A model generated the notes under the pieces. The model was not told the DNA's origin and made no database searches. It was given only the letters and a program-made list of their open reading frames with translations. A program made the position numbers and the translations under genes. Of a stretch of 64,000 bases of DNA, positions 21,287-22,243 are shown one piece after another. The DNA is from Escherichia coli. GTDB lineage: Bacteria > Pseudomonadota > Gammaproteobacteria > Enterobacterales > Enterobacteriaceae. The stretch is from NCBI RefSeq assembly GCF_001677475.2, contig NZ_CP015229.1; one strand, written 5' to 3'. Each line of letters begins with the position of its first letter. Positions within the stretch are counted from its first letter, which is position 1.

Positions 21287-22243
21287 ATGACAATCTTCAC
21301 GACCAGCACGCCGCATGACGCATTATTTAAGTCCTTTCTCACGCACCCTGACACCGCGCGGGATTTTATGGAGATCCACTTACCCAAAGATTTACGTGAA
21401 CTGTGCGATCTCGACAGCTTAAAACTGGAATCCGCCAGCTTTGTCGATGAAAAATTGCGGGCGCTACATTCCGATATTCTGTGGTCGGTAAAGACCCGCG
21501 AAGGCGATGGCTATATTTATGTGGTGATTGAACATCAGAGCCGCGAGGATATTCATATGGCCTTTCGCCTGATGCGCTATTCTATGGCGGTGATGCAGCG
21601 CCATATCGAGCATGATAAACGCCGGCCGCTACCGCTGGTCATCCCGATGCTGTTTTATCACGGTAGTCGTAGTCCTTACCCCTGGTCCCTGTGCTGGTTG
21701 GACGAATTTGCCGACCCGACTACCGCACGGAAAGTTTATAACGCCGCGTTCCCGCTGGTGGATATCACTGTCGTGCCAGACGACGAGATTGTGCAGCACC
21801 GCAGAGTCGCCCTGTTGGAGTTGATCCAAAAGCATATACGCCAGCGCGATCTAATGGGGCTTATTGATCAACTGGCAGTATTACTGGTTACAGGGTGCGC
21901 TAATGACAGCCAGATAACCGCGCTGTTAAATTACATTTTACTGGCTGGCGATGAAGCGAGTTTTAAAGAGTTTATCTGCGAACTAACCAGTCGAATGCCA
22001 CAACACAGGGAGCGAATAATGACGATTGCAGAGCGAATTCATAATGATGGATGGCTGTTGGGAAGGGAGAGGGGGAGGAAAGAAGGGAAAAAAGAAGGGG
22101 AACAGAGCTTCCTCCGATTGTTGTTGCAGAATGGGGCAGATCCTGAATGGATACAGCGATATACCGGACTTTCGGCAGAGCAAATGCAGGCATTAGATCA
22201 GCCCTTGCCTGAAAGCAAGCGCGATCCATGGATCGAGTACTAA
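21287..22243 (+). CDS. rpnD: Recombination-promoting nuclease RpnD (YhgA-like/Transposase_31 PD-(D/E)XK family), apparently intact
   Basis: Uninterrupted 318-aa ORF with Rpn-family N-terminal nuclease region (ALFKSFL...[21 protein letters not shown]) and C-terminal tail. Confidence 0.75.

Follow-up and report, generated by a model that had tools for sequence, protein, structure and literature searches.

The window analysed here is a 64,000-nucleotide stretch of Escherichia coli DNA (contig NZ_CP015229.1), and the ORF listing of this window revealed an uninterrupted, ATG-started reading frame of 318 codons plus a TAA stop at 21287..22243 on the plus strand. The deduced protein was found to match the Pfam family PF04754 (Transposase_31/YhgA-like) over residues 8-210 (E = 1.7e-86; score 289.5 bits, cut-off 21), with positions 1-202 of the 203-position profile covered, as well as the NCBIfam model of the Rpn family, TIGR01784 (169.7 bits, above its cut-off of 52.1). 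Since both matches exceed their cut-offs, the reading frame is not a chance ORF. The Pfam match places the Transposase_31/YhgA-like domain, with its PD-(D/E)XK nuclease core, at 21308..21916 (plus strand). Orthologues annotated by RefSeq in other E. coli genomes have an identical start and are also 957 nt in length. The equivalog models of paralogues fell short when applied to this protein, including (i) RpnA, at 378.8 (cut-off 583); and (ii) PRK09956, at 389.8 (cut-off 583), and the protein is closer to K-12 RpnD (about 93% protein identity) than to the paralogues encoded by rpnA, rpnB, rpnC, and rpnE. Overall, the ORF is a member of the Rpn/YhgA family and the orthologue of K-12 rpnD (formerly yjiP/yjiQ), and is referred to here as the full-length coding sequence RpnD_L. 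The continuous 318-aa Rpn-family ORF claimed in the initial annotation is thus in agreement with the ORF coordinates and with both family matches.

The genes flanking rpnD are mdtM upstream (19588..20829, minus strand) and yjiR downstream (22486..23898, minus strand). The gene order mdtM-rpnD-yjiR was found to be common to the window and K-12 with collinear flanks, and the intergenic region upstream of rpnD was 96% conserved. The small ORF ytiE of K-12 has an identical sequence in the window at 20982-21017 (minus strand), where it overlaps a hairpin downstream of mdtM. This hairpin, at 20964-20992, reads CTGACC-CCA-GGTCAG in the window and CTGAC-TTCGG-GTCAG in K-12, O157:H7, and another strain; compared with K-12 and O157:H7, the loop differs and the stem is preserved. 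On the opposite side of the gene, 3′ of the rpnD stop codon, palindromic elements were located at 22262..22348 (GCCTGATGCGCTACGCTTATCAGGTCTAC; no strand assigned), which include an inverted pair (22286-22303 and 22331-22348) and which, by their resemblance to the REP consensus, we take to be REP-like elements.

A defence island (24336-32766) begins 2 kb, or two genes, downstream of rpnD. The island carries a 697-aa GmrSD-like type IV restriction enzyme (24336-26429; PADLOC Orf5/HEC-06/mREase_IV) and an EcoAI-family type I restriction-modification system composed of hsdS (27038-28798), hsdM (28798-30303), and hsdR (30334-32766), and it is the variable 'immigration control region' of Kingston et al. 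The rpn genes tend to be located near defence genes (PMC10400941), and the island beside rpnD is consistent with this tendency. Between hsdR and yjiA, a 333-aa ORF (32874-33875, plus strand) gave no NCBIfam or PADLOC match. Further along the window, hpaC, hpaB, and hpaA of 4-hydroxyphenylacetate catabolism were found at 38036-41269, downstream of a btsT/cstA-like gene. To our knowledge, the hpa operon is not present in K-12, and its occurrence in the window is consistent with a non-K-12 background.

When the surrounding region was compared with other genomes, an E. coli contig in NCBI matched positions 18287-25243 of the window with 100% identity across 6,957 bp, and the best identity among complete genomes was 96-98% (97.8% over 24 kb). 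The possibility that this 96-98% ceiling reflects a non-coli Escherichia was ruled out by the 100%-identical E. coli contig together with the occurrence of the exact RpnD protein in many E. coli assemblies; the ceiling is a sampling gap in the complete genomes and not a sign of another species. Synonymous divergence between rpnD (21287-22018) and other E. coli alleles was also high (dS 0.11-0.19) and, taken with the 97.8% ceiling of identity to complete genomes across 24 kb, the chromosomal region of rpnD appears to be unusually diverged among lineages.

The corresponding interval of MG1655 (NC_000913.3, 4568998..4569918; 921 nt) is annotated as 'pseudogene rpnD b4584', with the older entries b4338 and b4339 (yjiP and yjiQ) no longer annotated between mdtM (b4337) and yjiR (b4340), and the RefSeq record of a K-12 derivative notes an 'internal stop' in rpnD. 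Alignment and translation positioned the lesion at codon 104, which is TAG in K-12 and CAG (Gln) in the window (21596..21598, plus strand), a difference of a single C-to-T transition, and TAG104 was found to be the sole internal stop upon translation of K-12 rpnD. The initial annotation described the K-12 locus as split in two (yjiP/yjiQ) and proposed that an alignment to this region would locate the lesion; the locus is indeed broken in K-12, where b4584 is a pseudogene with an in-frame TAG at codon 104 in place of an intact 318-aa ORF. In other respects K-12 rpnD is similar to the window allele, with the same locus, start codon, catalytic residues, and internal Shine-Dalgarno sequence and ATG at about 95% nucleotide identity, but, apart from the stop codon, it differs in having one 4-aa repeat (YIKG) instead of four and in the last ~15 residues. 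The K-12 gene additionally lacks 36 bp, in frame and near its 3′ end; because it has three fewer of the 4-aa repeats, a repaired K-12 protein is 306 aa in length and not 318.

TAG104 was found to be specific to the K-12 lineage. An exact 65-mer of K-12 that includes the TAG was detected in 338 of 5,426 genomes, and all of its carriers among the matches listed look like K-12 laboratory derivatives. In strain 1428, the MdtM and YjiR proteins are the same as those of K-12, yet codon 104 is CAG and a 306-aa rpnD is intact. As this strain combines the K-12 flanking haplotype with CAG104, the amber codon arose within the K-12 lineage.

The intact gene is the norm in E. coli and K-12 is the exception, such that the strain analysed here shows no special retention of rpnD. 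The locus was matched in 5,052 complete-genome records, which were sampled at an even spread, and 15 of the sampled genomes with rpnD were inspected. An intact annotated rpnD (921-957 nt) was present in 12 of the 15; the gene was a pseudogene in K-12, in a second genome through a stop at codon 40, and in a third through a frameshift, the last from an assembly in which yjiR is broken as well. About 18% of the records in the spread sample matched the flanks only, with no rpnD body. At the protein level, an identical 318-aa sequence was identified in NCBI (ANO92259.1 and others, on 38 contigs) under the name 'Rpn family recombination-promoting nuclease/putative transposase [Escherichia coli]', with no difference between ANO92259.1 and the window RpnD, and the 90%-identity cluster of the protein comprises 3,918 member sequences. 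Homology searching also retrieved full-length E. coli relatives of 306, 310, 314, 318, and 322 aa, plus other lengths. Those of 318 aa, such as WP_032176849.1, WP_000181178.1, and WP_000181112.1, share the length, four-repeat architecture, and locus of the window protein and vary from it by point differences only (e.g., KKEG vs KEEG or KVEG in the fourth repeat). Kingston et al. stated in 2015 (PMC4498929) that a complete YjiP is encoded by most E. coli and that K-12 has a premature stop, and the finding of an intact rpnD was therefore already known. The observation made in the initial annotation is correct but ordinary, in that it has all been published or annotated before that the gene is intact, that K-12 carries a stop codon, that the repaired protein is active, and that the repeats vary. 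Its bearing is on how the gene is viewed: natural isolates have a potentially active RpnD nuclease/antitoxin pair adjoining the restriction island, and it is K-12 that is exceptional at rpnD.

Residues important for activity were located on the window protein by reference to RpnA, for which mutation at the equivalents of D11, D63, E82, Q84, and R94 inactivated the enzyme or altered its activity, and a D165A substitution in the PDDEI motif rendered it hyperactive (PMC5350276). All of these were found in the window RpnD at the RpnA residue numbers. The catalytic-residue codons fall within 21317..21568 on the plus strand (D11, 21317-21319; D63, 21473-21475; E82, 21530-21532; Q84, 21536-21538; R94, 21566-21568), and the PDDEI motif (aa 164-168), which all K-12 Rpn paralogues share without change, is encoded at 21776..21790 (plus strand). 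In an alignment of 20 homologues that extends to Citrobacter, Klebsiella, and Salmonella, D11, D63, and E82 were invariant, as were P164, D165, and D166, and Q84 and R94 were nearly so. Comparison with eight other alleles gave a dN/dS of 0.10-0.17 across codons 1-244, indicating purifying selection over the nuclease domain, while the tail after the repeats was found to evolve much faster (dN/dS up to ~0.75 in the same comparison). An AlphaFold2 (AF2) model of RpnD from a 20-sequence alignment was of low confidence (pLDDT 59.5); in this model the order of elements was alpha-beta-beta-beta-alpha-beta (helices at 21-31/34-39; strands at 40-49, 61-70, and 73-82; helix at 91-109; strand at 117-124), an order that fits the PD-(D/E)XK core. 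A Foldseek search of the same low-confidence model against the PDB returned nothing at E ≤ 0.001.

Biochemical and genetic data from relatives of the window protein provide further context. Mg-dependent DNA endonuclease activity has been reported for purified RpnA only (PMC5350276). The repaired K-12 protein, YjiPc/RpnDc, was toxic in recA-deficient cells and induced an SOS reporter, and RecA-independent recombination was increased about 5-fold by it (PMC4498929, PMC5350276). This protein is full-length like that of the window, with the premature stop removed at the position where the window encodes Gln104; however, it is synthetic and has one repeat, whereas the window allele is natural, has four repeats (i.e., three extra), and differs at about 12 positions among the first 244 residues and in the last ~15 residues. 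We also considered whether suppression of TAG104 by glnX44 (supE-type) might lie behind the published activity of K-12 RpnD. The 2017 constructs were amplified from MG1655 DNA, the recipients carry glnX44, and the stop codon is unmentioned (PMC5350276); the strain table of that study, however, lists rhaBp-rpnDc, and yjiPc had been synthesised in repaired form (PMC4498929). Amber suppression was rejected because the construct tested was the repaired allele. The suggestion of the initial annotation that this strain may retain a functional Rpn nuclease fits with the catalytic residues, the dN/dS values, and the activity of the repaired K-12 allele of about 93% identity, and judging from sequence it is plausible that the window allele encodes a functional protein.

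The 3′ portion of rpnD was examined for a nested gene. The rpn genes are described as genes within genes, in which an internal start gives rise to RpnS, a small protein comprising the C-terminal part, by which the toxic full-length nuclease RpnL is inhibited (Zhong et al. 2023, PMC10400941). Strains were reported in the same study to carry varying numbers of 4-aa (12-nt) repeats, which start 8-20 residues past the internal Met, with a mismatch in repeat number between RpnS and RpnL abolishing the inhibition, and an internal transcription start site was reported for all rpn genes (PMC10400941). In the window, a predicted internal translation initiation site (iTIS) was identified at 22007..22021 (plus strand), composed of the Shine-Dalgarno sequence AGGGAG (22007-22012), a 6-nt spacer, and an ATG (22019-22021; Met245). 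The predicted antitoxin, RpnD_S, would be encoded at 22019..22243 (plus strand) and is 74 aa in length compared with 62 aa in K-12. The internal Shine-Dalgarno sequence and ATG were found in every sampled allele readable in frame, the Shine-Dalgarno sequence of O157:H7 being AGAGAG, and Met245 was invariant across the 20 homologues, including those of Citrobacter, Klebsiella, and Salmonella. When laid out in register, four 12-nt/4-aa repeat units were detected at 22052..22099 (plus strand), starting at residue 12 of RpnD_S and thus within the published range. After the shared ...HNDG, K-12 reads YIKG-EQ, with one unit, at the position of the four units of the window. The sampled alleles were found to fall into classes of one (K-12, 306 aa), two (O157:H7, 310 aa), three (314 aa), and four (318 aa, the window) repeats. 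Tandem Repeats Finder reported no array over 21900-22260, because 12-nt units so low in number and so degenerate escape its detection.

Residues 261-304 of RpnD matched the crystal structure of RpnA_S (7TH0) at E = 0.058, which is marginal, and the PF27070 (HTH_Rpn_C) match to the RpnD C-terminus was 'faint' in precomputed matches and absent from the local Pfam scan. Scanning the 74-aa and 62-aa C-terminal peptides against Pfam returned noise-level matches only. The low-confidence AF2 model places helices in this region at 238-259, 266-281, and 286-293. A candidate internal sigma-70 promoter (ATGACA-18-TAAATT with TG) was identified by consensus scan at 21903..21932 (plus strand), with the internal ATG about 90 nt further downstream; this site is weak, as the scan yielded 3 sites compared with 2.1 expected by chance, but its location is consistent with the internal transcription start site of the rpn genes (PMC10400941). 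In MG1655, all five RpnS proteins have been detected and, of the full-length forms, only RpnB_L, RpnC_L, and RpnE_L, thus no RpnD_L (PMC10400941). In our interpretation, the absence of RpnD_L from the full-length proteins of MG1655 fits with the amber codon.

Based on sequence features, namely the in-frame internal start with its ribosome-binding site and the variable 4-aa repeats, the window gene fits the RpnL/RpnS layout. The closest described parallels are RpnA_L/RpnA_S and RpnC/RpnP2, which resemble the window protein in the N-terminal PD-(D/E)XK domain, the internal start, and the 4-aa repeat variation (Zhong et al. 2023); however, RpnA, RpnC, and RpnP2 are paralogues of RpnD and not orthologues, as reflected for RpnA by the equivalog score (378.8 vs 583). 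RpnS has been reported to be made and to block its cognate RpnL for RpnA, RpnB, RpnC, and RpnP2, with antiphage activity reported among the rpn genes only for the plasmid-borne RpnP2 (PMC10400941). By analogy with these proteins and with the repaired K-12 RpnD, the window RpnD may act as a nuclease, behave as an L/S toxin-antitoxin pair, and possibly have an antiphage role. The 2023 PADLOC library, which has no Rpn model, gave no match to RpnD; this blank is explained by how old the library is and does not count against a role in defence.

Several other interpretations of the locus were weighed against these results. The labels 'putative transposase' and 'ISNCY family' would suggest that rpnD is an insertion-sequence transposase, in keeping with the Pfam family name Transposase_31 and with the best NCBIfam match, NF007418 ('ISNCY family transposase', 389.8 bits). 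This score is, however, below the model cut-off of 583, and inverted repeats bracketing rpnD were looked for and none were found. In addition, the gene occupies a fixed mdtM-yjiR slot across E. coli with flanks that are 96% conserved and a median of one place per genome, and rpn genes are without terminal repeats or target duplications (PMC10400941), which together leave the transposase interpretation barely credible. A different concern is that rpnD may be open but functionally dead or silent, either through a cryptic missense change or because the full-length form is unexpressed, in which case its intactness would be phenotypically meaningless. The limited set of full-length Rpn forms detected in MG1655 and the unchanged basal recombination after rpn deletions (supplement of PMC5350276) would be compatible with such a state, as would the frequency with which rpnD is lost or broken (the 3 of 15 pseudogenes, an IS1 insertion in E. 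coli B, and the ~18% of sampled records without the gene body). Arguing against it are the purifying selection over the nuclease domain relative to the eight alleles, the fully intact catalytic residues and PDDEI motif, the 96% conservation of the upstream region, and the maintenance of an identical protein in many isolates, and we consider a dead or silent gene to be improbable.

The main role of RpnD could alternatively be to promote RecA-independent recombination and the acquisition of genes at the immigration control region beside it (Kingston et al.) instead of toxin-antitoxin phage defence. The position of rpnD, which borders the hypervariable restriction island on its proximal side, and the ~5-fold rise in recombination seen with the repaired K-12 YjiP/RpnD are in line with this proposal. 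Yet the replacements were not targeted to the island upon induction, basal recombination was not lowered by rpn deletions, and the toxicity and repeat variation were later explained as a toxin-antitoxin/defence system (PMC10400941). A primary role in recombination is on balance unlikely, although the recombination and toxin-antitoxin roles are not mutually exclusive.

We regard it as highly probable that the window carries an intact and common E. coli rpnD allele encoding an RpnD_L nuclease with a nested inhibitor, RpnD_S, and that RpnD_L was lost in K-12 through TAG104. According to this model, the 318-aa RpnD_L would belong to the Rpn/YhgA family as a Mg-dependent DNA endonuclease of PD-(D/E)XK type that, when overproduced or freed from inhibition, may damage DNA and result in toxicity, SOS induction, and more RecA-independent recombination. 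Translation from the internal start (AGGGAG-N6-ATG at 22007-22021) would generate RpnD_S, a 74-aa C-terminal domain predicted to serve as an intragenic antitoxin by binding RpnD_L and inhibiting it, with cognate specificity presumably set by the number of 4-aa repeats in the first helix of RpnD_S, four in the case of the window. In the K-12 lineage, a single C-to-T transition converted codon 104 to TAG and eliminated RpnD_L. It can be proposed more tentatively, as a possibility that we rate somewhat short of even, that the four-repeat RpnD_L/RpnD_S pair of this lineage is an active chromosomal antiphage toxin-antitoxin at the border of the restriction island, that the repeat classes (1-4, possibly 5) are mutually non-cognate, and that in K-12, where RpnD_S is still produced but RpnD_L no longer can be, RpnD_S is an orphan antitoxin. 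If true, this active-module/orphan-antitoxin proposal would extend published Rpn biology to RpnD but would not represent a new kind of system. The window allele provides a ready natural four-repeat variant for comparison with the one-repeat repaired K-12 construct.

Individual genomes displayed additional rearrangements at this locus. In NZ_CP025627.1, for which only the upstream flank was matched, an IS1 lies beside mdtM, and brnT/brnA and then yjiA take the place of the whole rpnD-yjiR-restriction region, an arrangement which indicates that rpnD is also a presence/absence polymorphism. In an E. coli B derivative (NZ_CP117044.1; locus 424-1465), codon 104 of rpnD is CAG and an IS1A splits the gene right after ...HNDG, at the start of the 4-aa repeats. 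NZ_CP139953.1 and NZ_CP069445.1 were found to have no mdtM, with yjiN directly upstream of an intact 306-aa rpnD, and in NZ_CP139953.1 yjiR is cut down to a fragment that overlaps the rpnD end. In NZ_CP025268.1 (labelled K-12 MG1655, Boston; locus 424-1344), codon 104 of rpnD is TAA and not TAG; this genome looks like a genomically recoded (TAG-to-TAA) strain, and the TAA104 suggests that the yjiP stop was handled as a genuine stop codon during recoding.
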